DNA of 64,000 nt from a virus. Numbering within the stretch: position 1 is the stretch's first letter; each line of letters begins with the position of its first letter. Of this stretch, positions 30,949 through 50,202 are shown one piece after another. The stretch spans positions 1 to 64,000 of IMG/VR virus record IMGVR_UViG_3300046373_000136. One strand, 5' to 3'. A program made the position numbers and the translations under genes. Under the pieces are notes generated by a model. It did not search any database and was not told the DNA's origin. It was given only the letters and a program-made list of their open reading frames with translations.

Positions 30949-30956
30949 GGAACCCC

Positions 30957-34097: not shown

Positions 34098-34394
34098 ATG
34101 AGACAGTACCCCCGGCAATGTTTCGTCCTCACTCCTACGTTCCAGCTCAAGGAAATCACCATCACCAATGGTTATTCCTCACATGCCTATCCTGACTACG
34201 ATCAGGTACAGGATGGAAAGATTTTCCACGTCGATGAGCTGTACGCATCCAAGCAGGAAGCACTGGATGCTGGCGAACGCAAGGTCAATGAGCGCCAAAC
34301 CAAGCTGACCAAAATGCAAACCCGCCTCAATAAATGCGCTGACAACATCGCGTTGGCTCAAGCCAAACTCAACCAGGAGAAACCCAGTGTTTGA
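34098..34394 (+). CDS. hypothetical protein
   Basis: Start MRQYPR after SD AAGGA; C-terminal coiled coil. Confidence 0.65.
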   Translation: MRQYPRQCFVLTPTFQLKEITITNGYSSHAYPDYDQVQDGKIFHVDELYASKQEALDAGERKVNERQTKLTKMQTRLNKCADNIALAQAKLNQEKPSV

Positions 34395-34557
34395 TGATGA
34401 TGTGCCCAACACACAGCAACTTGTAAAAGACTGTTTTGAAATCATGGTCAACCGTGCCGCAGAAGACGGCTTCGTTGTAACCGTCGAGTAGCAACCCCTT
34501 CAACCTCTCGCCATGGGCAACTACGCAACCGTAGTCTCCGTGCGCCCTAAACGCTAA
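34387..34557 (+). pseudogene. small gene interrupted by in-frame TAG (nonsense or readthrough)
   Basis: SD AGGAG, GTG start; ...AAEDGFVVTVE*QPLQPLAMGNYATVVSVRPKR with TAG at 34489-34491. Confidence 0.55.
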
Positions 34558-34567
34558 AGGAAACATC

Positions 34568-35296
34568 GTGTCCGAAGGAAATAAGAACGTCGTGCTGGTC
34601 ATCGGACCACCGAACACTGGCAAGTCCACCTCACTGATGAAGCTGTCGAACCAAGACGAATTCGTCTACATGAATACGGACCTGAAGGAACTCCCATTCA
34701 AGCACAGCTTCATGGCCAGCGTCGAAGTCTCCGATCCCATTGATGTGCTCACGTACATTGACGAGATCGAGACCAACGATGCAGCCAAAGGCGGCGTGCT
34801 TGATACCATCACCTTCCTGATGGGCATGTACGAGCGCATGTACGTGAAGACCAGCGCCGATACCCAGAAAGCCTGGGGCGGCTATGGTGACTTTTACCGT
34901 GACTTCATCCACCGTATCAAGTCCGGCACCAAGGACTACGCCATCATGGGTCACACCGACACCGTGTATGACGAAGTGGCCTTGCAGAACGTCACCAAGG
35001 TGCCTATCAAGGGTGCAGTCGGCAAGATCGGTGTGGAAGCAGACTTCACCACCATCCTGTCCACCAAGCAGGTGCCCATCAAGTTGCTGGAAAAGCTGAA
35101 GATCGAAAACGATCTGCTGCACATCACGGACAACGAACGTGAAGACGGTTTCAAGTATGTCTTCTGCACCCGCGTCACCAAGGAATCGCTGGGCGAGAAG
35201 ATGCGCTCTGCCATGGGCCTCTGGAACCGCAACGAGCTGTACATCGACAACGATCTGGATCAGGTCTTTGCTCGTTTGAAAAAGTATTACGCCTGA
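34568..35296 (+). CDS. Sak4-like AAA ATPase / ssDNA-annealing protein (N4 gp44-like)
   Basis: GPPNTGKST, VLDTIT, GVEADFTTI; adjacent to SSB. Confidence 0.85.
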   Translation: MSEGNKNVVLVIGPPNTGKSTSLMKLSNQDEFVYMNTDLKELPFKHSFMASVEVSDPIDVLTYIDEIETNDAAKGGVLDTITFLMGMYERMYVKTSADTQKAWGGYGDFYRDFIHRIKSGTKDYAIMGHTDTVYDEVALQNVTKVPIKGAVGKIGVEADFTTILSTKQVPIKLLEKLKIENDLLHITDNEREDGFKYVFCTRVTKESLGEKMRSAMGLWNRNELYIDNDLDQVFARLKKYYA

Positions 35297-35340
35297 TCCA
35301 ACTGCATTACTATCTCACTCCCAACACAAGGAAATAAATC

Positions 35341-36081
35341 ATGTCCCTCCTCAAAAAACTCGCTACCTCCGACAAAGTTACCGTTGAAAAAGACCGCATT
35401 GGCGGTGGTGGATTCGTCCTCGATATGGACCTGTATCTGCTGAAGATCGTCCACGCTTACATCAGCACATCGGAATCCGAAGCCATGGCCCTGAACGTCA
35501 AGTTCGAGACCGAAGACGGCAAGACCCTGCGGTCCCAGTTCTGGATGACCAGCGGCAAAGAAAAGGGTGGCAAGAACACCTACATTGACAAGAAAGGCAC
35601 CGAGCACTATCTGCCAGGTTTCAACCAGGCCAACAGCCTGTGCATGCTGACCGTCGAGCAGGAAATCGGCACGATGGATACCGAAGACAAGCTGCTGGAA
35701 ATCTACAACGCCGAAGCCAAAGGCGAAGCACCAACCAACGTGCCATGCCTGGTGGACCTGTTCGGCACTCAAGTCTGGGCCGGCGTCCAGAAGCAAATCG
35801 TGGACAAGACCAGCAAGGAAAGCGGCTACCAGCCAACCGGCGAAACCCGCGAGCAGAACGAAATCGACAAGTTCTTCCATGCTGAAACCAAGCAAACCCT
35901 GTCGGAAGCACTGGCCGGCAGCGAAGCCGTCTTCTTTGAAACCTGGAAGAAGGAATTCGCTGGCAAGCCAGCCATCAACAAGGCCAAGGGTGCAGGTGTA
36001 GCCGGTGCCCCAGCCAAAGGTGGTGCTCCAGGTGCAGCCGCATCGGGCAAGACCACCAAGCCGCTGTTCGGCAAGAAGTAA
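35341..36081 (+). CDS. N4-type single-stranded DNA-binding protein
   Basis: SGKEKGGKNTY...YLPGF...GETREQNEIDKFF and C-terminal PLFGKK; syntenic with N4 gp45. Confidence 0.85.
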   Translation: MSLLKKLATSDKVTVEKDRIGGGGFVLDMDLYLLKIVHAYISTSESEAMALNVKFETEDGKTLRSQFWMTSGKEKGGKNTYIDKKGTEHYLPGFNQANSLCMLTVEQEIGTMDTEDKLLEIYNAEAKGEAPTNVPCLVDLFGTQVWAGVQKQIVDKTSKESGYQPTGETREQNEIDKFFHAETKQTLSEALAGSEAVFFETWKKEFAGKPAINKAKGAGVAGAPAKGGAPGAAASGKTTKPLFGKK

Positions 36082-36083
36082 CA

Positions 36084-36184
36084 GGGGAAAAGTCTCAGCA
36101 TTGCTGAGCAGAGGGATCACGAAAAAGCTAAGTGCGTGCAGTTCGTCATAGCCCAAGTTTGATCCTGCATCGGGAGGATACCCC
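36084..36184 (+). ncRNA. candidate structured leader RNA upstream of the sponge cluster
   Basis: Nested stems GGGG/CCCC, CTCAGC/GCTGAG, GGATCA/TGATCC, GCTA/TAGC; alternative stem ATCCT/AGGAT. Confidence 0.35.
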
Positions 36185-36210
36185 GTCATGTCAACCCACC
36201 AAGGAACTAC

Positions 36211-36531
36211 ATGAACAATGATCAAGCCATCGAAAAGATGGTAGTGGAGCAGAAGGCTACCGCTCCCCGTGTCGCTGCGGCGCACATCGAAGACATGATG
36301 AGCAAGGTGTCGTACATCACCATCGTACCGCCTGGTTCGACTTCGACCTTCGTCCACAGCTACTTCGAGAAGCGTTTTCACTTGGCCACCGGCCACAGTG
36401 GATGCGTGTCACCGGAAAACTTCCGTGCCGAGATCGGCCGTAAGGTTGCCATGGACAAGTGCATTGAACTGACCCGTGACAAGCTGTGGGAACTCGAAGG
36501 CTGGGCACTATTCCGGAGCATGAATCCATGA
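36211..36531 (+). CDS. N4 Gp49/Sf6 gp66 family protein (Acb4-like cyclic-nucleotide sponge)
   Basis: TAPRV...HIE...GHSGCVSPENFRAEIGRKVA...DKLWELEGWAL. Confidence 0.8.
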   Translation: MNNDQAIEKMVVEQKATAPRVAAAHIEDMMSKVSYITIVPPGSTSTFVHSYFEKRFHLATGHSGCVSPENFRAEIGRKVAMDKCIELTRDKLWELEGWALFRSMNP

Positions 36532-36998
36532 TCACCGCTGACATGCAGCAATATATCGGAACCAAGTTACTCAAGGCATTCCCTTTGAGCCGTGGTTCGT
36601 ACAATCTGTATCGTGGCTGGATTATACCCAAAGGGGAAAACCCAGATGATGAGGGCTATCTCGTTCAGTACCAAGATGGTTATGAATCATGGTCACCAAA
36701 AGACCAATTTGAAATGGCTTATCGAACGACTGAGGCTATGACCTTTGGTCTTGCAGTCGAAGCCATGAAGATGGGTATGCCCGTCAGCCGTCAAGGATGG
36801 AATGGCAATGGCCAGTTCGTTTATCTGGTTCCTGCTGCATCCTATCCAGCTCAGACTGGTGTGGCCAAGCATTACTTCGGTGAAGGCTCCATGGTGCCCT
36901 ACAACGCTTACTTTGCACTGAAGACCGTGCAAGGCAACGTAAGCACCTGGGTTCCTTCGATCAATGACTGCCTTGCAGAAGATTGGATGATCGTATGA
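36528..36998 (+). CDS. DUF2829 / Tad2-like sponge fused to an N-terminal YIGTK...SWSPK domain
   Basis: MTFGLAVEAMKMG..VSRQGWNG...WVPSINDCLAEDW; ATGA-coupled start at 36528. Confidence 0.82.
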   Translation: MITADMQQYIGTKLLKAFPLSRGSYNLYRGWIIPKGENPDDEGYLVQYQDGYESWSPKDQFEMAYRTTEAMTFGLAVEAMKMGMPVSRQGWNGNGQFVYLVPAASYPAQTGVAKHYFGEGSMVPYNAYFALKTVQGNVSTWVPSINDCLAEDWMIV

Positions 36999-37228
36999 CC
37001 GACAAGCAACTGGATACCTTGCTGCCCCACCAACAACGTGTGGTGCAGGAGAAGAAGGAGCTGGACGAGAAAGTTGTAGCCCTGGCCAAGTTTTTTACCA
37101 CGGATACCTTCCACAACCTGTCGGCTAATGAACAGACCATGTTGCATCGACAGATCATCGTCATGGGTAAGTATTCACAAATCCTGGGTGATCGCATTGC
37201 CCTGTTCCTGAAAGAAGTCAATGGATAA
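36995..37228 (+). CDS. small helical-hairpin protein (crAss001_48-related type), putative sponge
   Basis: PHQQRVVQEKKELDEK...L..F...F..L...EQ..L..Q...M..Y..IL..RI..F; ATGA-coupled. Confidence 0.7.
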   Translation: MTDKQLDTLLPHQQRVVQEKKELDEKVVALAKFFTTDTFHNLSANEQTMLHRQIIVMGKYSQILGDRIALFLKEVNG

Positions 37229-37511
37229 TCAACCAGAACCAGTGCAGCCGAAACCCGAGCTGATCCCCATGGATGACATGGGTGTCTTCATCGGTCTGGT
37301 GGAAGCCTGGCATGCTGCCAATATCGGCATGCTCAAACAGATGCAACACATCCCGAATGACGGCAGTATCTCTGTCGAATACGAAGGTGTGCGTGTACCC
37401 GTTCAAGGCGACATCTACAAGGGCATGATGATGGGCCTGATTGCTGCCATCGGCATGTTCGGCCAGCTTCCATTTGCCGAGATCGAAGATGAGCCAGCCA
37501 AGGCTGATTAA
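37221..37511 (+). CDS. hypothetical protein
   Basis: 96 aa, overlaps both neighbours; ends GQLPF. Confidence 0.65.
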   Translation: MDNQPEPVQPKPELIPMDDMGVFIGLVEAWHAANIGMLKQMQHIPNDGSISVEYEGVRVPVQGDIYKGMMMGLIAAIGMFGQLPFAEIEDEPAKAD

Positions 37512-38079
37512 CGTCTGTGGTATGGACCCCAGCATGCGTAGCTGGGGAATCGCCTGTGGCACATACAATCTGGACACGCACGAAGTGGTGATTACCCATG
37601 TTGAAGTGGTCAATACCGAGTCAACGAAAAGTAAGCAGGTACGGACCAACAGCCTGGACATTGCCCGTGCTGTCTTGTTGTATGAAGGTGCGGAAGACTT
37701 CTTCCGCGTAGCACAGTTCACCTTTGTCGAAGTGCCTGTGGGATCACAGAGCGCCAACGGGATGAAGGCTTACGGTATGTGCGTTGGCATTCTTGGATCA
37801 GTTCGTGCCAGTGGTTCGCAGTTCATTGAAGTGACACCAACCGAAGTAAAGGTTGCTGCCACAGGCAATAAGAATGCGACCAAGGACGATATGATCGAAT
37901 GGGCCACTACCAAGCACCCCGAAGCGCCATGGTCTAAACATCATGGCAAGCTCAACACCTCCAAGGTCGAACATCAAGCTGATGCAGTCGGTGCCATCCA
38001 TGCCGGCATCAAATCCAACGCATTCAAACAATTATTGCCATATCTGGCAGCCAATAAAGGAGTAGCACATGCAAGTTAA
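37489..38079 (+). CDS. RuvC-like Holliday junction resolvase
   Basis: VCGMDPSMRSWG, FVEVP, TPTEVK...ATKDDMI, HQADAVG. Confidence 0.85.
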   Translation: MSQPRLINVCGMDPSMRSWGIACGTYNLDTHEVVITHVEVVNTESTKSKQVRTNSLDIARAVLLYEGAEDFFRVAQFTFVEVPVGSQSANGMKAYGMCVGILGSVRASGSQFIEVTPTEVKVAATGNKNATKDDMIEWATTKHPEAPWSKHHGKLNTSKVEHQADAVGAIHAGIKSNAFKQLLPYLAANKGVAHAS

Positions 38080-38821
38080 TCTGAAAGAAAGCGAAATCGC
38101 CAAGGCGGTTGAACTGTACCTGAACGGTCATGGCATCAAGACCCTCGGACGTGATGTCACCATCCAGTTCTCGATGGGCAAAGGCGTCAATGGCCTGAAG
38201 GCTGAAGTCGAGATCGAAGGCATCGATCAACCGGAAATCCCCGGCTTCCGCACCACTGATCCTGTGGTCCTGGAAACCAAGGCTGAAGAACCTGAAGTCA
38301 AGCCGACCAAGGTCGCCGCACTGATCCAGCATCACACGGAAGAAGTGCAGCAGAAGATCGCTGCGGCTACGGCAGAAGTCCAGGCAGAGCATGTTGCTGC
38401 CATGGCTCAGGTTTCCCCGGTTGCTGAACACACCGAAGTCCTGGCCGTGCTCAGCAAGGCAGACATCGAAGCGGAAGCTGCCTTGGCAGAAGCCGAAGCG
38501 GCCGAAGCAGCTCAGGCTGACAAAGGCCCACCGTTCGAAGCAGATCAACCTGCCGCTGTAGCCGAGCCAGTAGCCGAAGCTGCACCGAAGGCCAAGCGCA
38601 CGCCGATCTTCGGCAAGAAAGCAGCAGCCATGGTCGAGCCTGAACCGGCCGCAGCACCAACGACTGAGCCGGACCTGGACGAAGCCGGCGACGACAATGG
38701 ATCGTTCGATCTGCCAACGGAAGGTGATGCACCAGCCGAAGCACCGGAGCCAGTGGCAGAAGTTAAGCCAACGCCGATCCGTCGCAACACGTCGAGCCTG
38801 TTCAAGAAGCCAGCGCCTTAA
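38069..38821 (+). CDS. hypothetical acidic Ala/Glu/Pro-rich protein
   Basis: SD AAGGAG; short folded N-terminus, low-complexity body, ends SSLF. Confidence 0.75.
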   Translation: MQVNLKESEIAKAVELYLNGHGIKTLGRDVTIQFSMGKGVNGLKAEVEIEGIDQPEIPGFRTTDPVVLETKAEEPEVKPTKVAALIQHHTEEVQQKIAAATAEVQAEHVAAMAQVSPVAEHTEVLAVLSKADIEAEAALAEAEAAEAAQADKGPPFEADQPAAVAEPVAEAAPKAKRTPIFGKKAAAMVEPEPAAAPTTEPDLDEAGDDNGSFDLPTEGDAPAEAPEPVAEVKPTPIRRNTSSLFKKPAP

Positions 38822-39010
38822 ATGCGTATCTTGAAAGCGATAGGAGCTATCCTGTTGTGGATCATCGTCATATTCATTGTGGCGTTGATCGGCTTGATAG
38901 GCTGGTTCCTATCCACTATCGCTGGTTTTGTTGTAACCGGTGTACTGGTGATCTTGGGCATCATGATCCTCTGTTCGGGGAACAAGCCCAAGAAACCTAA
39001 CCCACCATAG
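38822..39010 (+). CDS. small two-TM membrane protein
   Basis: 62 aa, highly hydrophobic. Confidence 0.65.
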   Translation: MRILKAIGAILLWIIVIFIVALIGLIGWFLSTIAGFVVTGVLVILGIMILCSGNKPKKPNPP

Positions 39011-39013
39011 GCA

Positions 39014-39045
39014 ATAGAAAGGCTCCTTCAGGGGAGCCTTTCTAT
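39014..39045 (+). terminator. intrinsic terminator
   Basis: ATAGAAAGGCTCC / GGAGCCTTTCTAT, a 13-bp perfect inverted repeat. Confidence 0.75.
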
Positions 39046-39071
39046 GACTTATCCCACATGGAGACTTACCG

Positions 39072-39299
39072 ATGAAAAATATGAAGCGCGTGAAATTACA
39101 TGAAGCCAGTATCGGCAAACATGTTGTGGTCAGCGATGCACTCGATGCCACGATCTACACCGTCAAGGAAGTGACCAACTACACCTTGCGCCTGGCCTAT
39201 TATGAGAATGGCCGGGAGTACGGCGGTGGACAGATGGATGTAGGTGGTTGCTACCACCCTACCGAAGAACAACTCAACCATGAGCTGACCCGCAAATGA
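39072..39299 (+). CDS. hypothetical protein
   Basis: 75 aa, SD GGAG. Confidence 0.6.
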   Translation: MKNMKRVKLHEASIGKHVVVSDALDATIYTVKEVTNYTLRLAYYENGREYGGGQMDVGGCYHPTEEQLNHELTRK

Positions 39300-39538
39300 G
39301 CAACAAACATTATGTGCTGGTTCCTGGTTACGTCATCAGCGAGACCGATGATGATGAGCACTACATCACATGGCAAATGCTGCAACGCCTGTACCAACTG
39401 GAACGGGGAGAATTTTCCATTAGCCGCGGTCATAAACGTGGTTGCACAAGAGAAATCTTCGAACCTCCTGTTCCACCAGATCGGGAAATCGTATGGCTCC
39501 GACCCAGCAGCAAAGGCAAGTACGGACGGCCAGAATGA
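39296..39538 (+). CDS. hypothetical protein
   Basis: ATGA-coupled; YVLVPGYVISETDDDEHYI...LRPSSKGKY. Confidence 0.65.
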   Translation: MSNKHYVLVPGYVISETDDDEHYITWQMLQRLYQLERGEFSISRGHKRGCTREIFEPPVPPDREIVWLRPSSKGKYGRPE

Positions 39539-39693
39539 TCTGGCCAATTCTGGCAGCTTTAGCTGCTTTACTTTCTTTCTTTGGTTTGCTGTATCAAAAA
39601 CACAAAGATATAAATGATATCTGGACCATGAATATATGGGCAAATGCAATATGGTTTATTCCATATCTTCTATTGGCTATAGGAAAGAAGTAA
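39535..39693 (+). CDS. small AT-rich two-TM membrane peptide
   Basis: ATGA-coupled; MIWPILAALAALLSFFGLLY...WANAIWFIPYLLLAIGKK. Confidence 0.55.
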   Translation: MIWPILAALAALLSFFGLLYQKHKDINDIWTMNIWANAIWFIPYLLLAIGKK

Positions 39694-39753: not shown

Positions 39754-42700
39754 CTACTTGAAGACGGACATCGCACCATTCACCGTTGCCAGTTGATCCA
39801 ACGTACTGAAATACCGGAACGCTCCTGTTGTGAGTGGGTTGTTGCCTACCTTCCTTAATGCAGAGCTGTCCAATACAGTTTCACCCAGTTCCCAGATATT
39901 GTCCAGAATGATCGTACCCAACACCCGTGCCGGATTCTCCCGCACCAATCGGATCAGCACCTTCTGGATGCGCAGGAAGTACTTCATGAACGGGATGATG
40001 CCCATGTCATCCACGTATTGTAAAAGTGGATGCATCGGAATGTCATAGTTCACGAAGGCTTCACTGGCTTGCTGGATCGCTTCCTTCTTGCTCAGCGGAT
40101 TCTTTTTCCGCGTCGTCAGGTGTTGATACAGCGCATACCGAGCCACGAAGTCAGACAGTTGCGTTACCCGTGAGAGACCTTGATACAGCTTCGTATCGTG
40201 GGTCATGTAGACGTTCTTCAGCCCACGCTGAATGACCGGATGCAGGTATTGATCCATCTTCTCATCCACGTCCCGAGCAAACTTGCTCCGGTACGAATAA
40301 ATGTCATCGGCTGCGGCCACATCCTCCACAATCGTTGGCATCAGGCCAGCGTCTATCAGCTCCTTGACCGGGTTCCGGGCAATGCTGTCTTCCAGACGGG
40401 TGATTTCATCATCCAGTTCTTTCACACTCCCCTTGATGTAATCAGCACTCCGTGCCAGTTGTAGCCGTGCCAGCTTCTCGCTGTCTTTGCGGTACGCTGT
40501 CGCTCCCCGCAAAGCCACCAGATGACTGTTCAAGTTTTGCCGGAATGGCACACCGGACAAGGCCAGCAACCACATATTCGACTTGATGTTGCCGATCATC
40601 ACCGTACCAGTCTTGACCACCACGATGTCCTTGATCTCCGACACCACAGCGAGCCAGCGACGTTCAAACTGACGCACACGGTGTTCAGCCTTGGCACCGA
40701 AGATTTGCGTGGTCAACTGGATCATCGCCTTGTCCATGAAGCCTTTGTCTTCCTTGTTGAAGGCATCAGCCATGGACAGCTTGCGATAGCCGAACAGGAT
40801 GTTCAGGCTGTCCTTGCGTACCATCATGGCATCCTGCCCCCACACTTTACGGATATCCGCTTGGGTCTGGGCCGGCAGAAGATTCCAGATTTCACGCAAC
40901 GAGGCATCGGCCGAACCAGCACCGATCTTGATGAAGTCGTCTGGATTGTCTGCGAAGGATTTGTTGTATTCCTCCCGCAGCACTTCCACGGCTTTCTTGT
41001 TCTGCACCGGTGTGGCTTGCTTGTCATAGACCGAACCGGCCATCTTGCCCATCAGGTGCTCGAAGCGGTTATCCCGTTCGAGGATCGAGTCCTTCGTGGA
41101 CTCAGCCATCAGGTAACGCCAGTCGGTGATCCGGCCAGCTTCATTGAAGATCGGCGCAGCATGGTTATCCGAACGGTTCGACATCAGCTTCCAGGAGCTA
41201 CCCTTGGTCTGCCGATCCCAGGCCGACATCGCCATGGTGGAGAACTCATTCGGGTTCTCAATCTCCAAACGGCTACCCTTGGCTCCGGTATCGGACAGCG
41301 AGAACGCACCCGTTACACGGCGGCTCAGGCCACCATCCTTCTGCACGTAGATGTGCTTGACGCCACCGTTCGGGTCCAGATTGTCTGGGTTCACACGTGG
41401 TCCTTTGCTATAGCCTTGAGCCACCAGTAGATCACCCAGCTCATTGTTGACCACTTGAATATCAGTGTTCGGGTTGTACACCTCCGGTGTGTAGCCGTGC
41501 ATCATCAATGTTGGATTACCCTTGAACAGCTTTTCCAGGGACTCCGCTTCCATGTGCTTGTGCAGCTTGAGCATGAACTCCACACCGTTCTCCGTGCCCC
41601 GGCCGTTCTCTGCCGACAGCACCGAGTTGGCCGCAGCCTTGTCTGCATCCGAGCTGTAGCCGATGCTGTACAGCGTCACCAGGGCATTGATCGTGGCTTC
41701 GCTTCGGTATGCCTGAATGTGATCGACATTGCCTTCGTACTTGGTGCCCAGCAACCGGCTGATGTTATGGCCATTGGCATGCAGCAGACCACGAACATAT
41801 CCCGTTGCCTTGTAGTAACCCAGTACTTGTGCCTGCTCGATCACGGCATCCTTCAGGCCACGATAGTTGCCCAGCTTGGCTTCCATCTCTCCAATGTGCT
41901 TGTCCAGTACAGCCGGATCAGCCAGCATCGCTTCGATCTGCTTCAGGTCGAAGTGATCCAGCAGGTGATGGGCACCCGAGCGCATGAAGATGCGGGTCAC
42001 ACCGGTCTTCTGTGCTTCGGTCAGCTTTTCACTATCCTTGAACCCGGCCAGGACTGCCGCTGCACCCTGTGTGATGATGTCCTTGCGTTCACCTTCCCGA
42101 ATCTTGGCTTCACGCAAGATTTCCTGGAAGACAACCAAGTGTCCACGCACCTCAGTCACCAGCGAGGCCATCACGCCTTCGCTGCTCTTGAACTCCTTGT
42201 TCCGGATGGTCTTCATACCGTCCAGGAAGTCTTCCACGCGATCATCGGCATAGATTTTGGCAACCACACCGGCTGTCCGGATGAATTGATTCTTGCTACC
42301 GGTGAACAGCTTGGAACCAGCCGCCTTGCTCACAGCAGCACGGCCTTTCTCAGCCAAAGACTTAGCCATGTCTTCGACTGGTTCCAGCATCGCCGTGGTC
42401 ACCGCATTACGTGCCAGCACTTGCTTGCTCTTAGCTTCAATGCTCACCAGTTGCTTGACCAGTTGTTCGAGCTTGGCATCAGCCCGTTGACCAGCGTAGG
42501 TACCGGTGATCTTGTCGGTCAGCAGTTCCAACATCTTCTCGAAGAAACGTTGCAGCTTATCGGCAAAGGAACCACCCGAGGCCATGGTACCGGTGTCGGT
42601 CGAGACCTTCATCAGCTCATTCACCTCAGGGTGGACCAGCGCCATGGCTGCAAAGCGTGCCAGATAATCCGACTGGTTCCCGTTGTCCTTGGTAGGCGTG

Positions 42701-45700
42701 AACAGGAAGTCATGCTGATCCTGTGGCAGCTTGCCTTGCAACAGCGTCTTGGCTTCGGTGTACAGCTTGCCCAGTTGCGCATATGCGCTCTTGGCCGCTG
42801 CATCGTGGCTGTCGAGTGCGGTCTTGATCGTCACTTCCACCTGTTCCAGTGCGAACGCCAACTGGCTCGATACCCGGAACGGCGAAGCAATCGTAGCCGA
42901 GGCAAACGGTACGGCACCCTCTGCTTCAGCGGTGATGAACGCATCCAGTGGTGTCCCGGCCTGACTGTTCATGATCGCTTGACGCAGCGAGCCGAACTTG
43001 CCATGCAACTTCTCCACGATCCCGGTTAGCAGACCGGTGATCCGGCTCTTGTCGGCATCCGACAGGCGACCATCTTCCAGCGCATTGAAGACATCCTGCG
43101 TGCTGTATTCGGTGATGCGCTGTACTGCCATCGACAACACCGTGGCAACCTGGGACTGTGGTCCCTGTTTCTGCTCCGCTGCATGCTTGAACAAGCCGGA
43201 AGCATTGGCAATGAGCATGCCCAGACCGTTGGTCTGCATGTCCGTTGGCGACTTGAACAGATATTTGCTGATCGTGTTGATGAACTTCTGCATGCCAGCC
43301 ACCAGACGATTCTTCGTCGTGCGGCTCTCGTCCAGTTGTATCTTGCTCAGCACTTCCGTTTGGAAGTCCCGGTTGGTCAAGCCCCATGCCAGCAGCTCGT
43401 TGACTTCGGTGACGGCACCGTCGAACTTTGTCAATCCCTTGTCTTCAACATAACCCCGTGCCACGGACAGGATTTCTTCCAGTTCCGAGACCAGTGCCTT
43501 GGCATCCCCGGTTGGATTGATCACAGCCCGTGCCAGCACACTGTGGATCAGCTCATGGATGACCAGTTCAGGCGTCAGGCCCGAGTCCACGAAGTCGGGT
43601 GACAGTAGGTTGACTTCCTGCTTGCTGCCCTTGGCCACATACCAGCCACGGCTGGCTTCAGTAGGCATGGCCAGCACATCCCCTGCCTTGGTCTCCGGCG
43701 TGATGTAACGCACCGTCAGATCGGCCGGGGCCAGTTTGTACAGCACTCGCAGCATGTCGGCTTGCAGCTTGCTGCTCCACCCGCCATCCTTGCGCAACAT
43801 CCCGACCAGTTGCTTGATCAAGTCCTTGACCTGGGGATTCGGATTCGCTTGCAGATAGGAAACTAATTCTGCATTCGATTCGACCACCGGGGAACCAAGC
43901 TGACCAAAGGGGGTGAATACCCCTTGGTTCAAGCTGTCAGCAGCCTGCACAAGCGATTCCACTACCGCATCCTTGTCAGCACCTTCAGGCATGGCGTTAA
44001 TCGCTTCTGCGACGTTCTGGCCAGCCTCAACGGCCTTCTGCAAGTCCCGTGCTTCCTTGGTGTCGAGTTCCGCAGCGACCTGGCCCACTGCCCATGCAGC
44101 GGTTGCCGGTGTGGTCTGCGTCTGTTCGGCGGTGATGACCGGTGCTACTTGCTTCGCGGTGGCGGGTTGTACCCCCTTGACGAACAGTTTGCCCAGCGCA
44201 TCAGCACTTGCTTCCATCGCTTCGGTGAGTGGTGCACCTTCGGCTTCGAGTTCAGCCAGCAGCTTCCGGGCTTCGGCCCGGTCTGCTTCGGTGACATCGT
44301 ACTGCCCGTCTTCCCAGGTGTACTGGTCAATGGCGGTCATCTCTGCCATGGCTTCGAGCCGCACCTTGTTGGCCTTGAATTGCTGACCACGCAGACGCGA
44401 CAGGATATGTACCGGCAGATCAGCCGGCGCTACTTCTTCATCCTGGTACAACAGGGCTTCGAACGATGCCTGAATCTGCTTGAGCACAGCCGGGGAGACA
44501 TCCCCATCCTCTGCCATTTGCAGCACATTCGTCACCGAGCGTTCGAGCATCTGGAACGCTTCCGTTGCTGGGGAGAAAGTCAGCAGGGTTTTCCAGGTGG
44601 CACCATTAATCGCCTTGGCAGTTTCCCGCACCTTGTCGGCACCATTGCCAATCTCGTCATGCACGTTCATCGCTTCGATGAATTGAGCCAATGCCCGATG
44701 CATGATGGCCGAGTCAGACGAGTGCATGAAGTACGGCAGTCCAGCCGCACCGGGACCGACTTCACGTCGTTCCATGGAGCTGGCCTTCATCGCTGTGACT
44801 GGCTTGCCTTCGGCATTAAGCACTGGTGTAGCGAACTGGGTCTTGGCATATCCATACGGCTGTGTGCTACGACCATTGCTGGTCTTGGCCATATACAGAC
44901 CGGCATTCAGATCCCCTTCGGCTTGGCTGTAGGCGGTATGTGCTTGTGGCAACACGTGCGCTACCTTGGCATCCAGCGCCGCTTTCTGTGTGGCGTTCAT
45001 GCCATGCACCGGGACACGATCAGTCGTACCGTCCTTGCGCTTAACATCACGGTAATCGATTTCACCGGCTTCCATCAGCCGGGTCATTTCCTTGGCTTCC
45101 AGATCACGATACAGCGCATCGTAGATTTCAAAGGAAGTCTGGATTGCCTTGTTCACTGCCGAACGCCGGGACGAGAACACTTTGAAGTAGTTGTTCATGG
45201 TCTCCGTGACCGCTGCACCCATGGTGTTATCAAAGGCATCGTTCATGCTGTCCAGACGTGCCTTGTTCTCCTTGGCATCCAGGTCCAGCACCATCAGTTG
45301 TTCGATGGTCGTGTCTGCACTGAAGGCGTTCTTCCTGCCTACCAGTTGGTTGAGACTGTCGATCAACTGACCACGGCTTGTACTCTTGTCCGAACCATCA
45401 GCAACCGCTTCAATCTTGTCGTAGACCGACTGGATGAAGGCTTCCCGCATGGACAGGACAGATTTCTCCACGGCTGAGCCAAAGGTAAAAGCAGTCAGCG
45501 GTGTCTTGACAATCTTTCGGCCTGCACTGGTGACCTTGTTACCACTCATCAGTTCCTTGGTGAAGGTCTGGATTGCCGTCATGGTGGCCGAGTTCGGCAA
45601 GCCTTTGAGCACATGACTGGCCAGGTCTTCGTACAGGTCCAGGCTGGCATCGTTTTCGTACCAGAGGTTGTAATTCTTCACACCGTCTTCGGCACGATAC

Positions 45701-48700
45701 ATCCCACCCCGATTCAAGCGTGAGAACAGGGCTTTGATCGAGCCGGCCGCACCGAGTGCCAACTGGGACAGGATCGGGCCATTGGTCTTACCGTCCACAC
45801 CGACGAGCATATGTGACTCGAACGTGGCATCGCCCTTGTCCTTGGCATGCAAGTAGGTGCCGTAAGCAACGAGTGCTTGCAAGGTCTGCATCCCTTCGTT
45901 ACCTGCGGCCAAGTCGGCTATCGCCTCCTTGTCCTGGGTACTCAGGGATGCCGTTTCGGGAGAAAGGGTGGCGTCATATAGCTTGGTTGCCAGCGCATCG
46001 ATTCCCTTGGCCTGGACCTTCTTGTTGAAGATGTCCATGCTCTTGCTGTTGCGTTGCTGGTCCACCTTCACGCCCATGGCTTGAGCCACACCGATCAGGA
46101 ATTGTTCCGCATCAGCGGTCTTGATGGTGGCCTTCCACTCCGGACGATAGATCATGAACCGGTGAATCTTCGAGGTCTGTGGGTTCAGATCACGGGTGCT
46201 GATACCAACACGGAAGTTACGCCACACTTCGTAGTTCAGGAAGAATGGTTGTTCCAGCTTCTCTGTACTGTTGGTCAGCGCATTCGTGATCAGTCCCTTC
46301 AGGCTGAGCAACTGGTTTTCCAGGTTCAGGTTTTGGGCTTCGACGCTATCCCGATTCTTCGCATGAATCTTGTCGTCATTGGCTTCCTTCCAGCCGGCCG
46401 CTTTCAGGATCACGTCATCCCCGAGCACGCTCAAGGCATGCCACATGGATGGAATGATCCGGTGCGGTACCTTCTGGGCTTTCTTCAGGGTGGCAGTCTG
46501 TTCCTTGCTCACCTGTTGACCGGTGCGCTTGGCGAACTCCTGCTTGAACGGGATCGGTGTCCAGCTCGCTTCGGTGGGTGTCTTCTCGCTGTCGAACAGC
46601 TTGTCCACCACGCCTTGCGTGTCGGCGTTGGCATCACGGATGGCACGGCTGTCATTCGGCAGTTCCTTGCCGTCACGGACCAAGCTCACATAGGTGATCG
46701 ACTTGTTGGCTTCCATGCTGAATTCCGGCATAAAGTTGGTCAGCACATTGCCCTTGAAGGTCTCGGTCTTGACCAGTTCATTCTTGCGCAACACCTGCAA
46801 GGCATGGATACCAAACGCTGTTGCCAGTCCTGGCAGGTAGTCAAGCGGGGCATCCGGCGTAGCCGAGAGGCCCAGCGCCTTGACGATACGGTCACCCAAA
46901 TCATTAATGACTGCGGTCTCCATTGCCGCCACATTGCGCAAGATGGCTACACCTGCCTTGGTCATCGTATTGGCTTCACCATCCAGACCATGCATCTCCA
47001 ACAGGTCAGCAGCATCTTTGCTCATCGGTGCATGGATGGTGTCGTTGATCCAGCTATACGCCCCATAGGCGATAGCCGTCACCACGTTCTCATCCATGGT
47101 GCCATCAGCATTGAAGAAGTCCTGAAGCGGGTCTTCATAGACGAACTCAGGGTTGACCTGATTGCCTTGGCTGTTCTTGATGCTGCCCTTGATCAAGAGC
47201 GCCTTGATGTCAGCCGACCACTTGGTTGCGAACTTCTGGAAGGTCGTGATCGCCGTGCGCTGCTCATCGGTCAGCCCACCGGGAAACAGGCTGTCTGGTT
47301 CCACGGTTCCGTCATTCATCAGGGTGAGCAGGTTGTTGACTGCGACCAGGGGTTTATCCCGGCCGATGTCTTCATCCTTTTCCACCTTGGCACCCTTCTG
47401 TTTGAGAAATGTTGCTGCCCTATTAATTTTTCGGTACACGGCTCCACGCTCGCCTGGCGGCAGCGTGTTCGCCTTGTCCTGGCCTTGTTGTAATACCGTC
47501 AACCCTGGCTTGGACTGAGAGTCACTTTCAGTGGAATTCTTAGTCGATAAGGGTGCCTCCGGCACCATTGGCGAGATGGATGCGGTAGACTCCGTTCCCT
47601 CAGTAGAATGCAGTGGATTTTTAGTCTTCTCAGTTTCCTGAGTTGACTTTAGTGGATTCTCAGTAGAGCTGCCGGAGGCAGCCTGAGTTAACTGAGTAGT
47701 CACAGCCGGCTGTGCAGCGGTGGACACTGCACTTGGTGAAACACCTACCGGACTTGGCGAGACTGCAACCGGTTGTGCAGGTACCGTAGGTGCTGCTTGA
47801 CCAGACGTTGCAGATGCCGGAGCCGGTTGAACCGCTCCAACAGATGAGTTTCCGCTAGATACTGCTTGTGCCGATGGTAGGTTCTGGACATTCTTGGCTC
47901 CATTGAAACGCAAGTCGATAGCCGCAGCCAACTCTGCCTTGGTTGCAGCAATGGCATCAGCTTCTTTCTGGATCGAGCTGACCAGTTTTTGTGACGCGGC
48001 ATTGACCGTTACCGCACCATTGATCTTTGCTTCCTTGCCTTCGAGGAAATTCGAGTAGCGAATTTCCCATTGCTTAGTGGCATCATTCTTCACCACCTGC
48101 ACCGGTTTGCCCGTGTCTTGATAATCCTGGAAGGCTTCAGCCGTTAGGGTTGCCTTCTGGCTATGTGAAGTTTCGAAGTTGGTCAGCAGATCGAGACTGG
48201 CATTGGCCTTCTTGATTGAGCCAGCACCAATCGCACTAGCTACCTGTTCCCGATACTGGGTCAGGCCCAGGTTGGTCTTGGAACCGTCCACGATTTCCTT
48301 GGACACATCACCCAGACCGCGCAGCTCGTTTTCTGCTACTCGCGTTGCTGCGAACTTGCGCAGGTAATCCTTCTGCGTTTCCGTGGTGGCAGGACTGTTG
48401 ATCAGGGTATTGGCATCGTCTTCCGTGACACGCTTTGGCGACACCATGGAGAGATTGATGATGTTCTCCGCTGCTTGGGCCGCTTCCGGTGCGACGGAGG
48501 CTTCGCCACCGTCTTCCGGCGCTGCCTTAGCTTCGAGTTTGGCGAGCTGGTCTTGCACATCCATGGCGGTGAAGTAGTCGGTCTGGAACCGGTCCATCAC
48601 ACGTTGGGCCTTCTCCACGGACTTCTTGGTACCGGACAGTTCCTTTGCCATGGCCTTTGCTTCCGGCGTGGTTTTGTCTTCCAGTGCGTCATACGCATCG

Positions 48701-50202
48701 GACTTGGCCACATAGTCACCGTTGAACTTGGCCATGATGTCGAACGCTTCCCGGATGTTCTTTTCCTGCACATCCGGTGTGCCATTCTCACGGGAATGCG
48801 TCATGAGTGCCTGGACGGCCTTATCCGGGGCGTAGGCAGGCGATTGCGGGTCAGTCAAGGCCGATACATCACCTGTCTCTTTCGCCGCCGTGTAGGTCTC
48901 CTGAACAGCTTGTGGCACGGGAGCCGGAGCGTCAGCGGCAGGCGACGTGCCAGGTACATGGCTAGGACTGGCCAGATGTACACCGGCTGAGAGTCCACCA
49001 CCGGCTACCGCACCCAGCGTACCGCCGACATAGTTTTCTTCACCGGAGTAGGGCTTGCCCTCGATGTTGCGCTCCATGCCGGTCTGGTAGAACTCGGTAC
49101 CGAATTCACCGACTGCACCTTCACCCACGGCAGCACCAGCACGACCAATCGCGGTCTTCTCAACAGCACCGGCTACCTTACCCGAGCCAGGAATCACCTT
49201 GGCACCGAGCATGAACTTGTCACCCAGTGTTTCAGCCACAGCCAGGGAACCTGCTTTTGCTGCCATGGTAGCCAGCTCATCCCCGGAAGGAATCTGACCG
49301 TTATGGGTCTTCTGGTATTCCTGTACGCCCTTGCTATAGGCTTCCATGGCATATGCCACGTTGGTTGTCGTCATCGCACCACCGGACAGTGCAGCAGCAG
49401 CCAGTTGTGGGGTATTGGATACCACCAACTCCATTGCCGCAGTCGGGTTCTTCCAGGCAGCTTCGCCCACCGTACCGATGAGACCAGCGATCCCTGAAGC
49501 TACATCCATGGCACCGGTTGCACCACCTTTATCCCAGCCAGAGGTGATCTTGGCCATGCCATCTTTATAGCCGGCCTTGGCCGTATTCGTGATGTCGGTC
49601 TGGTTACCCTTGTGAACGATGGACGAGATGTCCGTCTGTGAACGCAGGTCTTCCCCGAACTTCAAAGCTTCATCAACCTTGGCCATGCGTTCCATGTTGG
49701 TCTGCAAGCGGCCGGTCTTGCGTGCTTCAGCCCGAGCCACTGCCTGATATTTGGACAGGGGCCGGTTTTCCGAGATGTCACCATCTGGCAGACTGAGCAG
49801 CTTCATGTCCTCATCAGTCTGCGAGCCGTTCTTGTAACGAGCATGGGCCAGTTTCACTTCTTCTGGCACACCCTGCATTTCGGCTGCTGCCTTCAATGTC
49901 GGTACCATGTTGATGATCTGTGTACCCACCTTGGCTGTTCCATCGGCCAGTGTTGCTGCCATGTTCACCGCTTCACCGGGAATCCCATCGGGATTCAGGC
50001 CCAGCTTGCTAGTCCAGGAATCCTTATTGGCCAGGTCTTCTGCCTGCTGTGCTACCTGATTGCCTGACGTACCATCCACCACGGATTGTAGATCAGCAAC
50101 TTTCTTGTTGGCAGCACGGCCCAGATCACCGAGCTTGTCGCCTTCAGTAATGCTGCTGCCGTATTTATTGGTCAGGTAAGCGTCAAGGTTGAATTCAGAC
50201 AT
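39754..50202 (-). CDS. virion-encapsidated RNA polymerase (N4 vRNAP, gp50-like)
   Basis: 3482 aa with no Cys seen; motif A VDGKTNG, motif B RKIVKTPLTAFTFG, motif C VHDEIG; C-terminal HELIH zincin-like motif. Confidence 0.96.
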   Translation of the reverse strand: MSEFNLDAYLTNKYGSSITEGDKLGDLGRAANKKVADLQSVVDGTSGNQVAQQAEDLANKDSWTSKLGLNPDGIPGEAVNMAATLADGTAKVGTQIINMVPTLKAAAEMQGVPEEVKLAHARYKNGSQTDEDMKLLSLPDGDISENRPLSKYQAVARAEARKTGRLQTNMERMAKVDEALKFGEDLRSQTDISSIVHKGNQTDITNTAKAGYKDGMAKITSGWDKGGATGAMDVASGIAGLIGTVGEAAWKNPTAAMELVVSNTPQLAAAALSGGAMTTTNVAYAMEAYSKGVQEYQKTHNGQIPSGDELATMAAKAGSLAVAETLGDKFMLGAKVIPGSGKVAGAVEKTAIGRAGAAVGEGAVGEFGTEFYQTGMERNIEGKPYSGEENYVGGTLGAVAGGGLSAGVHLASPSHVPGTSPAADAPAPVPQAVQETYTAAKETGDVSALTDPQSPAYAPDKAVQALMTHSRENGTPDVQEKNIREAFDIMAKFNGDYVAKSDAYDALEDKTTPEAKAMAKELSGTKKSVEKAQRVMDRFQTDYFTAMDVQDQLAKLEAKAAPEDGGEASVAPEAAQAAENIINLSMVSPKRVTEDDANTLINSPATTETQKDYLRKFAATRVAENELRGLGDVSKEIVDGSKTNLGLTQYREQVASAIGAGSIKKANASLDLLTNFETSHSQKATLTAEAFQDYQDTGKPVQVVKNDATKQWEIRYSNFLEGKEAKINGAVTVNAASQKLVSSIQKEADAIAATKAELAAAIDLRFNGAKNVQNLPSAQAVSSGNSSVGAVQPAPASATSGQAAPTVPAQPVAVSPSPVGVSPSAVSTAAQPAVTTQLTQAASGSSTENPLKSTQETEKTKNPLHSTEGTESTASISPMVPEAPLSTKNSTESDSQSKPGLTVLQQGQDKANTLPPGERGAVYRKINRAATFLKQKGAKVEKDEDIGRDKPLVAVNNLLTLMNDGTVEPDSLFPGGLTDEQRTAITTFQKFATKWSADIKALLIKGSIKNSQGNQVNPEFVYEDPLQDFFNADGTMDENVVTAIAYGAYSWINDTIHAPMSKDAADLLEMHGLDGEANTMTKAGVAILRNVAAMETAVINDLGDRIVKALGLSATPDAPLDYLPGLATAFGIHALQVLRKNELVKTETFKGNVLTNFMPEFSMEANKSITYVSLVRDGKELPNDSRAIRDANADTQGVVDKLFDSEKTPTEASWTPIPFKQEFAKRTGQQVSKEQTATLKKAQKVPHRIIPSMWHALSVLGDDVILKAAGWKEANDDKIHAKNRDSVEAQNLNLENQLLSLKGLITNALTNSTEKLEQPFFLNYEVWRNFRVGISTRDLNPQTSKIHRFMIYRPEWKATIKTADAEQFLIGVAQAMGVKVDQQRNSKSMDIFNKKVQAKGIDALATKLYDATLSPETASLSTQDKEAIADLAAGNEGMQTLQALVAYGTYLHAKDKGDATFESHMLVGVDGKTNGPILSQLALGAAGSIKALFSRLNRGGMYRAEDGVKNYNLWYENDASLDLYEDLASHVLKGLPNSATMTAIQTFTKELMSGNKVTSAGRKIVKTPLTAFTFGSAVEKSVLSMREAFIQSVYDKIEAVADGSDKSTSRGQLIDSLNQLVGRKNAFSADTTIEQLMVLDLDAKENKARLDSMNDAFDNTMGAAVTETMNNYFKVFSSRRSAVNKAIQTSFEIYDALYRDLEAKEMTRLMEAGEIDYRDVKRKDGTTDRVPVHGMNATQKAALDAKVAHVLPQAHTAYSQAEGDLNAGLYMAKTSNGRSTQPYGYAKTQFATPVLNAEGKPVTAMKASSMERREVGPGAAGLPYFMHSSDSAIMHRALAQFIEAMNVHDEIGNGADKVRETAKAINGATWKTLLTFSPATEAFQMLERSVTNVLQMAEDGDVSPAVLKQIQASFEALLYQDEEVAPADLPVHILSRLRGQQFKANKVRLEAMAEMTAIDQYTWEDGQYDVTEADRAEARKLLAELEAEGAPLTEAMEASADALGKLFVKGVQPATAKQVAPVITAEQTQTTPATAAWAVGQVAAELDTKEARDLQKAVEAGQNVAEAINAMPEGADKDAVVESLVQAADSLNQGVFTPFGQLGSPVVESNAELVSYLQANPNPQVKDLIKQLVGMLRKDGGWSSKLQADMLRVLYKLAPADLTVRYITPETKAGDVLAMPTEASRGWYVAKGSKQEVNLLSPDFVDSGLTPELVIHELIHSVLARAVINPTGDAKALVSELEEILSVARGYVEDKGLTKFDGAVTEVNELLAWGLTNRDFQTEVLSKIQLDESRTTKNRLVAGMQKFINTISKYLFKSPTDMQTNGLGMLIANASGLFKHAAEQKQGPQSQVATVLSMAVQRITEYSTQDVFNALEDGRLSDADKSRITGLLTGIVEKLHGKFGSLRQAIMNSQAGTPLDAFITAEAEGAVPFASATIASPFRVSSQLAFALEQVEVTIKTALDSHDAAAKSAYAQLGKLYTEAKTLLQGKLPQDQHDFLFTPTKDNGNQSDYLARFAAMALVHPEVNELMKVSTDTGTMASGGSFADKLQRFFEKMLELLTDKITGTYAGQRADAKLEQLVKQLVSIEAKSKQVLARNAVTTAMLEPVEDMAKSLAEKGRAAVSKAAGSKLFTGSKNQFIRTAGVVAKIYADDRVEDFLDGMKTIRNKEFKSSEGVMASLVTEVRGHLVVFQEILREAKIREGERKDIITQGAAAVLAGFKDSEKLTEAQKTGVTRIFMRSGAHHLLDHFDLKQIEAMLADPAVLDKHIGEMEAKLGNYRGLKDAVIEQAQVLGYYKATGYVRGLLHANGHNISRLLGTKYEGNVDHIQAYRSEATINALVTLYSIGYSSDADKAAANSVLSAENGRGTENGVEFMLKLHKHMEAESLEKLFKGNPTLMMHGYTPEVYNPNTDIQVVNNELGDLLVAQGYSKGPRVNPDNLDPNGGVKHIYVQKDGGLSRRVTGAFSLSDTGAKGSRLEIENPNEFSTMAMSAWDRQTKGSSWKLMSNRSDNHAAPIFNEAGRITDWRYLMAESTKDSILERDNRFEHLMGKMAGSVYDKQATPVQNKKAVEVLREEYNKSFADNPDDFIKIGAGSADASLREIWNLLPAQTQADIRKVWGQDAMMVRKDSLNILFGYRKLSMADAFNKEDKGFMDKAMIQLTTQIFGAKAEHRVRQFERRWLAVVSEIKDIVVVKTGTVMIGNIKSNMWLLALSGVPFRQNLNSHLVALRGATAYRKDSEKLARLQLARSADYIKGSVKELDDEITRLEDSIARNPVKELIDAGLMPTIVEDVAAADDIYSYRSKFARDVDEKMDQYLHPVIQRGLKNVYMTHDTKLYQGLSRVTQLSDFVARYALYQHLTTRKKNPLSKKEAIQQASEAFVNYDIPMHPLLQYVDDMGIIPFMKYFLRIQKVLIRLVRENPARVLGTIILDNIWELGETVLDSSALRKVGNNPLTTGAFRYFSTLDQLATVNGAMSVFK

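Follow-up and report, generated by a model that had tools for sequence, protein, structure and literature searches.

Does the run of small genes that lies between the SSB and RuvC-like genes of an uncultivated virus form a set of sponges for immune signals, and, if so, how many of the genes belong to that set? The locus is contained in the 64,000-nucleotide stretch analysed here (hereafter the window; positions 1 to 64,000 of IMG/VR virus record IMGVR_UViG_3300046373_000136), whose source record is a complete virus genome of 78,154 bp with direct terminal repeats. It consists of four overlapping open reading frames (ORFs) on the plus strand, termed here g1 to g4, which are evident in both the ORF list and the raw sequence (Table 1). 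A first-pass annotation, made from the sequence without database searches, had read these genes as an island directed against immune signalling, in which known sponge families might be accompanied by new ones. We consider it very likely that g1, g2 and g3 are three separately encoded sponges of three established families (Acb4, Tad2 and Sequestin, respectively), situated in an anti-signalling hotspot of N4-like phages, and that g4 is probably not a sponge. This reading is founded directly on the structure and overlaps of the genes, the family membership of g1 to g3, the pocket residues of the Sequestin, the orthology of the neighbouring genes to Bes1 and Bes2, and the pattern in which the N-terminal domain of g2 is fused to other domains.

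Results

Three sponge families in three overlapping genes

As the first-pass annotation had described, four overlapping small genes lie between SSB and RuvC, the first three of them ATGA-coupled: the ATG of g2 overlaps the TGA of g1 as ATGA, and the junction of g2 and g3 forms a second overlap of this type. The overlap between g3 and g4 comprises 8 nt (ATGGATAA), and the last 23 nt of g4 are shared with the RuvC-like gene. Because all four have homologues elsewhere, g1 to g4 can be regarded as real genes and not as chance ORFs. Homologues of g2 begin at the residue equivalent to M6 (ATG 36543), and the start at 36528 adds the residues MITAD, which have no counterpart in most relatives; gp49 of phage N4 carries a short N-terminal extension comparable to that of g2. 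The ATGA-coupled start of g2 at 36528 is, on this comparison, plausible but not certain.

The product of g1 matches PF13876 (Phage_gp49_66) over profile positions 3-78 of 82, scoring 51.6 bits against a curated cut-off of 27, and is 29% identical to N4 gp48 (E 4e-13); with the Acb4 half of LIT1 gp64, which is annotated as the counterpart of Ab09 gp59, it shares 30% identity (E 6e-11). The primary literature equates PF13876 with the Acb4 family, in line with the earlier attribution of g1 to a Gp49/gp66 family containing Acb4; the Acb4 of phage SPO1 is a tetrameric sponge of 3'3'-cyclic GMP-AMP (3'3'-cGAMP), cGAMP was bound by all eight Acb4 homologues assayed, and N4 gp48, the Acb4 of N4, is both necessary and sufficient for the activation of Panoptes. 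From its family, g1 is the presumed binder of cyclic dinucleotides, the signals of CBASS. Direct comparison with the SPO1 Acb4 structure (PDB 9E4W) was marginal (E 0.3), with the ENF..EIGR core conserved. The SPO1 pocket residues compared were K36, F48, E49, V56, Y57, F62, N63, I66, T70 and K81: in a weak HMMER alignment, F48, F62 and I66 correspond to F56, F71 and I75 of g1, K36, E49 and Y57 are replaced by P41, H57 and V66, and K81 falls beyond the aligned part. The nomenclature of this family holds a trap, in that Pfam describes PF13876 as 'N4 Gp49', yet the PF13876 protein in the GenBank record of N4 (EF056009; L081 3106-3959) is gp48. The gp49 of that record is a protein with the same N-terminal domain as g2, followed by Tad2.

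The C-terminal part of g2 matches PF11195 (Tad2-like; DUF2829) over the entire profile (positions 1-73 of 73; 83.1 bits, cut-off 25), a match that was recovered also in the genome search, and the primary literature confirms that PF11195 is Tad2, in agreement with the first-pass annotation. Residues 69-156 align with ModTad2 (PDB 9EIB/8V3E) at 47 of 88 identical positions (~53%; E 2e-26) and with a single gap of two residues; other members of the family are more distant (SPO1 Tad2, E 2e-13; HgmTad2/AcrIIA7, about 4e-13). Identity between g2 and N4 gp49 over both domains amounts to 40% (E 1e-39). ModTad2, which derives from a prophage of Myroides odoratus, is a tetrameric sponge that sequesters histidine-ADP-ribose (His-ADPR), and the ligands of Tad2 proteins as a whole are diverse, including glycocyclic ADP-ribose (gcADPR), His-ADPR, cyclic dinucleotides and, in one branch, N7-cyclic ADP-ribose (N7-cADPR). 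His-ADPR, the signal of type II Thoeris, is our best guess for the ligand of the Tad2 domain of g2.

The third gene, which had been suspected of encoding a crAss001_48-like and possibly Sequestin-type protein, proved to belong to that family, with a match to PF21825 (crAss001_48) over profile positions 2-60 of 61 at 64.4 bits (cut-off 24.8). PF21825 is Sequestin, a sponge of 3'-cyclic ADP-ribose (3'cADPR) that acts as an antiparallel homodimer and came to light because it occurs fused to Tad2 and to Acb4 (Tal et al., bioRxiv 10.1101/2025.07.12.664507). The pocket residues are R8/E12/Q47/R61 in SequestinA and R7/E11/Q45/R59 in SequestinB, the latter set having been tested by mutation, and 10 of the 13 Sequestins assayed blocked type I Thoeris (Tal et al.). 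When g3 is aligned with six further PF21825 domains, its residues R15, E19, Q53 and R67 do not vary, and their spacing (4, 34 and 14) equals that of the SequestinB residues. It is presumed from these features that g3 binds 3'cADPR, the signal of type I Thoeris. Between g3 and the Sequestin half of LIT1 gp64, BLASTP yields no alignment.

A known hotspot in a distant N4-like phage

The window is a portion of a complete N4-like (Schitoviridae-type) phage genome, as is evident from the genes near the cassette: primase-like and ParB-like genes, Sak4 and, on the opposite strand, a virion RNA polymerase (vRNAP) of 3482 aa, which is the hallmark of such phages. The succession of primase-like gene, Sak4, SSB, cassette and minus-strand vRNAP is common to N4, CB1, LIT1 and Pollock, and the contents of the hotspot differ between these phages. 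Because its SSB shares no more than 50% identity with those of isolated N4-like phages (that of Pollock being the nearest) and because a megablast search of 35341-38079 against 50,697 phage records returned zero matches, the phage is, as judged from these comparisons, a distant uncultivated lineage without a close sequenced relative.

The region from primase/SSB to vRNAP has been described as an anti-signalling hotspot of N4-like phages that contains Tad2, Tad3, Acb4, Sequestin, Bes1 and Bes2 (Fedorova et al., bioRxiv 10.64898/2026.06.04.730250, June 2026). The same study found that Bes1, which is RuvC-like, and the poorly folded Bes2 each rescue phage Ab09 from both Thoeris and CBASS (Fedorova et al.). 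Downstream of g4, the RuvC-like protein shares 47% identity with LIT1 gp65, which is orthologous to Bes1 (Ab09 gp60). The first 50 residues of the next protein are 34% identical to LIT1 gp66, the orthologue of Bes2; this is the weaker of the two Bes matches, and the protein (isoelectric point [pI] 4.57) continues into a long acidic tail of low complexity. Judged by its genes and their position, the locus is this published hotspot, such that the interpretation as an anti-signalling island was right but not new. What is particular to this phage is the presence of three sponge families as three separate, coupled genes.

No plus-strand intrinsic terminator or terminator-like site was found across 34300-39552, a result that fits a single long transcription unit. 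The 129-nt gap between SSB and g1 (36082-36210) yielded neither a sigma-70-like promoter nor a terminator-like site; a structured regulatory leader was also considered for this gap and rejected, its folding energy having a z-score of -0.58 relative to shuffled sequences.

Table 1. Positions of the cassette genes, the domains of g2 and the neighbouring genes of the hotspot within the window.
Feature	Position	Strand	Supporting match or remark
Primase-like gene	30894-33131		Upstream of Sak4, SSB and cassette
SSB, N4-type; upstream boundary of cassette	35341..36081	+	phrog_743, E 7.3e-71
g1, Acb4-family sponge, 106 aa	36211..36531	+	PF13876, E 1.4e-13
g2, N-domain plus Tad2 domain, 156 aa	36528..36998	+	PF11195, E 2e-23, residues 71-156
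g2 N-domain, small Tudor/SH3-like barrel	about 36543-36731	+	Residues 6-66; model pLDDT (predicted local distance difference test) 95.6
g2 C-domain, Tad2 of ModTad2 type	about 36732-36995	+	
g3, Sequestin-family sponge, 77 aa	36995..37228	+	PF21825, E 8.9e-18
g4, acidic helix-hairpin-helix protein, 96 aa	37221..37511	+	phrog_15896 family; no Pfam family
RuvC-like protein, Bes1 orthologue	about 37489..38079	+	phrog_159, E 1e-45; LIT1 gp65, E 1e-58
Bes2-like protein, short folded N-terminus and long acidic Ala/Glu/Pro-rich tail	38069..38821	+	LIT1 gp66, E 3e-7
vRNAP, 3482 aa; downstream boundary of hotspot	39754..50202	-	ORF list; position as in N4, CB1, LIT1 and Pollock

A conserved domain in front of exchangeable sponges

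The domain that precedes Tad2 in g2 (the N-domain) is modelled as a small β-β-α-β-β-α barrel. Its structural neighbours in VIA-align are generic (the RNA-polymerase-interacting domain of Mfd, Z 5.6; CarD, 5.0; DUF1653, 4.8); Foldseek found no significant match in the PDB, and a profile search of the PDB was empty. The domain is widespread: it is present in 526 loci of IMG/VR and in 165 phage records, N4 gp49 and crAss-like phages among them, and a known sponge domain comes after it in all 53 distinct proteins (Tad2 in 35, Sequestin in 15 and Acb4 in three); stand-alone copies, for example P0010, also exist. With a mean column identity of 81%, its conservation is well above that of its cargo: residues Y20, N21, Y23, W26, E32, D45, G46, Y47, E48, S49, W50 and P52 (numbered as in alignment A2) are invariant, and R24 is nearly so. 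The domain is mildly acidic (median pI 5.1).

Cargo appears to be exchanged behind this domain. A tree of the N-domain, which is built on 62 columns and has little resolution, implies seven changes of cargo by parsimony, only two of which are forced by well-supported branches. Two of the IMG/VR loci L001-L080 (L059 and L072) have near-identical N-domains, the cargo being Tad2 in one and Sequestin in the other. Near-identical N-domains with unrelated cargo point to recent swapping of cargo behind a conserved handle.

The degree of conservation, with its invariant aromatic and charged residues, is greater than a mere handle needs, and the domain is found only with sponge domains across this large set of loci and phage records; together with the stand-alone copies, and with the fact that Sequestin was itself discovered by the same logic of fusions, this would favour an N-domain that is a ligand-binding module in its own right, i.e., one more sponge, directed at another signal, as opposed to a handle for dimerisation. 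We regard such a role as unlikely, given the behaviour of a characterised relative. The N-domain of g2 is 30% identical over 80 residues (BLASTP E 1e-6) to the N-domain of RyR Tad (CB1 gp68), and phrog_18865 spans both architectures. In the crystal, the RyR Tad N-domain forms a domain-swapped dimer; alone, it has no activity against type I Thoeris, and the gcADPR ligand sits in the RyR C-domain. The generic nature of the Tudor/SH3-like barrel, for which the Mfd domain gave the top Z, and the mild acidity of the domain also speak against a second sponge. Because the homologous N-domain of RyR Tad is inactive alone and acts in dimerisation, a role as a handle is more probable for the N-domain of g2 than one as a second sponge; most likely it serves dimerisation and is joined by phages, through recombination, to sponge cargo of any kind.

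An acidic fourth gene next to the Bes1 orthologue

Of the comparisons proposed at first pass, that by hidden Markov model profiles assigns g1 to g3 to Acb4, Tad2 and Sequestin; for g4, neither profiles nor Foldseek return a sponge match. Relatives of g4 were obtained with an exhaustive HMMER search and form 143 clusters of proteins of ~100 aa (mostly 90-130 aa, and mostly viral). A word-based homologue search returned g4 alone, tblastn of g4 against the 50,697 phage records found none, and a pattern search based on the alignment gave 15 pattern matches, none of which was confirmed; a search for longer homologues was also empty, but covered only 385-2000 aa and so has little bearing on fusions. 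Almost all family members (69 of 70) match phrog_15896, which is labelled 'Mu Gam-like end protection'. The family has invariant W30, P45 and L83-P84, near-invariant F85, H31, G63 and G72, and an often-retained D64, followed by an acidic tail; its median pI is 4.27 and its net charge -13, Arg and Lys are absent from the invariant positions, and only two sites carry a basic residue in 50% or more of the members.

In its model (pLDDT 91.6), g4 is composed of a helix, a β-hairpin and a second helix, similar to a prefoldin β subunit. Foldseek found no significant match to this model in the PDB, the PDB search with the family profile was empty, VIA-align returned generic helical hairpins only (Z at most 6.0), and BFVD yielded only uncharacterised phage proteins, including a homologue in CB4. 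Among the solved sponges, none matched g4 in sequence or fold, with Tad3-Tad8 being compared through the PDB searches only.

The first-pass annotation had listed g4 as a candidate for a further sponge, albeit a weaker one than g3, and several features fit such a role. At 96 aa, g4 is within the size range that Tal et al. use for viral sponges (<~100-200 aa) and of phage origin, it directly follows three sponge genes with overlapping codons, and its helix-hairpin-helix shape resembles that of prefoldin subunits, which oligomerise. In addition, the g4 domain occurs in rare fusions, behind an RyR domain (the fold of the gcADPR sponge RyR Tad) in P0059, behind another small β domain in P0118, and, in P0153, behind the N-domain, in the slot that is otherwise held by Tad2, Sequestin or Acb4. 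However, such fused forms number only two to three among the 143 cluster representatives, and relatives of g4 occur where there are no sponges: no sponge families were found next to those in ZY21 and in the early region of JBD67. Moreover, the pockets of known sponges are strongly positive; the g4 family is very acidic and lacks any invariant basic position, for which reason g4 is unlikely to be a nucleotide sponge. That it represents a fourth sponge, of a new family, that completes a four-sponge operon is hence a view that we hold to be very improbable.

A g4-family gene overlaps the gene for the RuvC-like resolvase in at least 10 Cbunavirus-type N4-like phages (of Pectobacterium, Enterobacter, Kosakonia and Escherichia), as it does here, with the g4 versions alike at the profile level only. 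In CB1, for instance (gp73 and its RuvC-like neighbour; L082 17097-17988), the likeness to g4 emerges from the comparison of profiles (hhalign 96% for the g4 family against CB1 gp73, and 98% against JBD67 gp05), and pairwise BLAST of g4 with either protein detects no similarity. The g4-RuvC pairing persists as the sponges of the hotspot change from phage to phage, which, along with the strong acidity of the protein and its tail, makes it conceivable that g4 is tied to the RuvC-like gene or to DNA-end metabolism, be it as a Bes1 partner, a Bes1 regulator, an acidic inhibitor of nucleases or a DNA mimic. Under this alternative, to which we attach tentative weight, g4 would adjoin the sponges merely because these were inserted upstream of it. 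Depositors and PHROGs have given relatives names that agree with it ('host nuclease inhibitor' or 'Mu Gam-like'), but these names have no support from homology to Mu Gam, and we regard the Mu Gam and 'host nuclease inhibitor' labels of the family (phrog_15896/phrog_6755) as unsupported: hhalign against Mu Gam gave a probability of 0.2%, and the Gam family PF07352 had no Pfam matches among the 70 g4-family members, CB1 gp73, JBD67 gp05 and the ZY21 homologue. Nor is the pairing universal, in that a g4-family gene is missing from N4 and LIT1/Ab09 in spite of their RuvC-like gene, and Mu-like phages and Nickievirus phages have a g4-family gene without an adjacent RuvC. A kinship of g4 with LIT1 gp63 (the gene after SSB) or gp66 (Bes2) was considered separately and rejected, the proteins being unrelated on comparison.

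On balance, we interpret g4 most likely as an acidic, probably oligomeric protein that is linked to the RuvC-like Bes1 gene and acts by binding proteins, be it a host factor or Bes1. Broken down by function, we allot little weight to a sponge and a minority share to a Bes1-partner, DNA-end or nuclease role, and the remainder to some other protein-binding role in counter-defence or to no assignment. A more far-reaching proposal, in which the g4 domain is a new anti-signalling module without a basic pocket (a binder of a TIR [Toll/interleukin-1 receptor] protein, a cGAS/DncV-like nucleotidyltransferase [CD-NTase] or an effector, or else a cofactor of Bes1) that occupies the common cargo slot behind an N-domain serving as a universal active handle, seems improbable to us.

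Other features of the region

Similar short motifs occur in the tails of two proteins of the hotspot. The C-terminus of SSB (36058-36078) reads ...KPLFGKK, and the Bes2-like protein contains an internal ...TPIFGKK and ends in ...SSLFKKPAP; the Bes2 orthologue of LIT1 ends in ...GGSLF. A tail motif common to SSB and Bes2-like proteins could indicate a shared docking partner. Directly after the Bes2-like gene, an ORF at 38822-39010 encodes a very hydrophobic, membrane-like protein of 62 aa with two helices, and its position equals that of CB1 gp76, a small 'membrane protein' gene before vRNAP. Nothing informative was matched by two further small ORFs (39072-39299 and 39296-39538), of which the second hits phrog_7644 only.

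Discussion

Proposed mechanism

Because their stop and start codons overlap and no terminator was found between them, g1 to g3 are probably co-expressed after infection, with a layout that suggests co-transcription and translational coupling. Each sponge is predicted to assemble into a homo-oligomer, the inter-subunit pockets of which would capture one class of alarm nucleotide such that the downstream effectors stay off. By homology, g1 would remove the cyclic dinucleotides of CBASS (e.g., 3'3'-cGAMP and isomers of cyclic di-AMP), the Tad2 domain of g2 would take up His-ADPR (type II Thoeris) or a different product of TIR proteins, and g3 would remove the 3'cADPR of type I Thoeris.

Several points weigh against this interpretation. 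At the positions of K36 and E49, the residues with which SPO1 Acb4 reads guanine, g1 has P41 and H57 and, because of these counterparts (which come from a low-confidence alignment), the ligand or base preference of g1 may differ. The specificity of Tad2 varies widely, and the one line that leads from g2 to His-ADPR is its proximity to the ModTad2 clade. Three of the 13 Sequestins assayed were inactive (Tal et al.). The fusions in P0059 and P0153 keep an anti-signalling role for g4 possible. Finally, the ligands, oligomeric states, co-expression and any role of g4 are inferred for the proteins of this particular phage.

Significance

A single uncultivated N4-like phage thus spends three separate small genes on three classes of immune signal, and its cassette supports the published view that the region from SSB to vRNAP in N4-like phages is a reliable hunting ground for counter-defence genes. 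It also supplies candidates for tests, in the form of a ModTad2-type Tad2 with an N-domain and a divergent Acb4 in which the guanine pocket seems to be altered. The foremost candidates are the N-domain and the acidic g4 family, both of which recur across hundreds of phages.

Comparison with known systems

The closest counterpart of the locus is the published hotspot of N4-like phages (gp57-61 in Ab09), which occupies the same slot (from primase, Sak4 and SSB to vRNAP) and holds the same kinds of cargo (Acb4, Sequestin and Tad2); as here, the RuvC-like Bes1 gene of Ab09 and LIT1 is followed by that of Bes2. The arrangements differ, however, in that Ab09 and LIT1 have Acb4 and Sequestin fused in one protein without Tad2, whereas the three families are separate overlapping genes in the present phage. 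The sponge genes of Ab09 and LIT1 are arranged around the RuvC gene, whereas here they all lie upstream of it, with a g4-family gene between the sponges and Bes1; LIT1 gp63, the counterpart of Ab09 gp58, is unrelated to g4. In N4, gp48 and gp49 form an adjacent, overlapping pair in the same order as g1 and g2, but this pair adjoins vRNAP, behind the RuvC-like gp46 and gp47, and is accompanied by neither a Sequestin nor a g4-family gene.

The individual proteins likewise combine familiar and divergent traits. With SPO1 Acb4 (PDB 9E4W), g1 shares the Pfam family, the core motif ENF..EIGR and residues that match F48, F62 and I66, but differs from it in the marginal direct similarity and, in the weak alignment, at both guanine-reading positions. 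ModTad2 (PDB 8V3E and 9EIB) aligns almost without gaps to the C-domain of g2, but is a stand-alone protein of 89 aa, whereas g2 has an additional N-domain of 65 aa and a ligand specificity that is a prediction. SequestinA and SequestinB have in common with g3 the Pfam family, the length class, the helical hairpin and the R/E/Q/R pocket residues (in the spacing of SequestinB), whereas the Ab09-type Sequestin domain, as in LIT1 gp64, is fused and of low pairwise similarity to the stand-alone g3. In RyR Tad of Pectobacterium phage CB1 (gp68), a domain homologous to the N-domain of g2 is likewise N-terminal to a sponge domain, but the cargo is an RyR-repeat domain instead of Tad2, and gp68 lacks the YN.YRGW motif of the g2 clade. 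CB1 gp73 and JBD67 gp05 (phrog_15896) belong to the g4 family by profile comparison, although neither is detectably similar to g4 by pairwise BLAST and the Gam label that they carry is unsupported; CB1 gp73 resembles g4 also in its place, between SSB and the RuvC-like gene and overlapping the latter.

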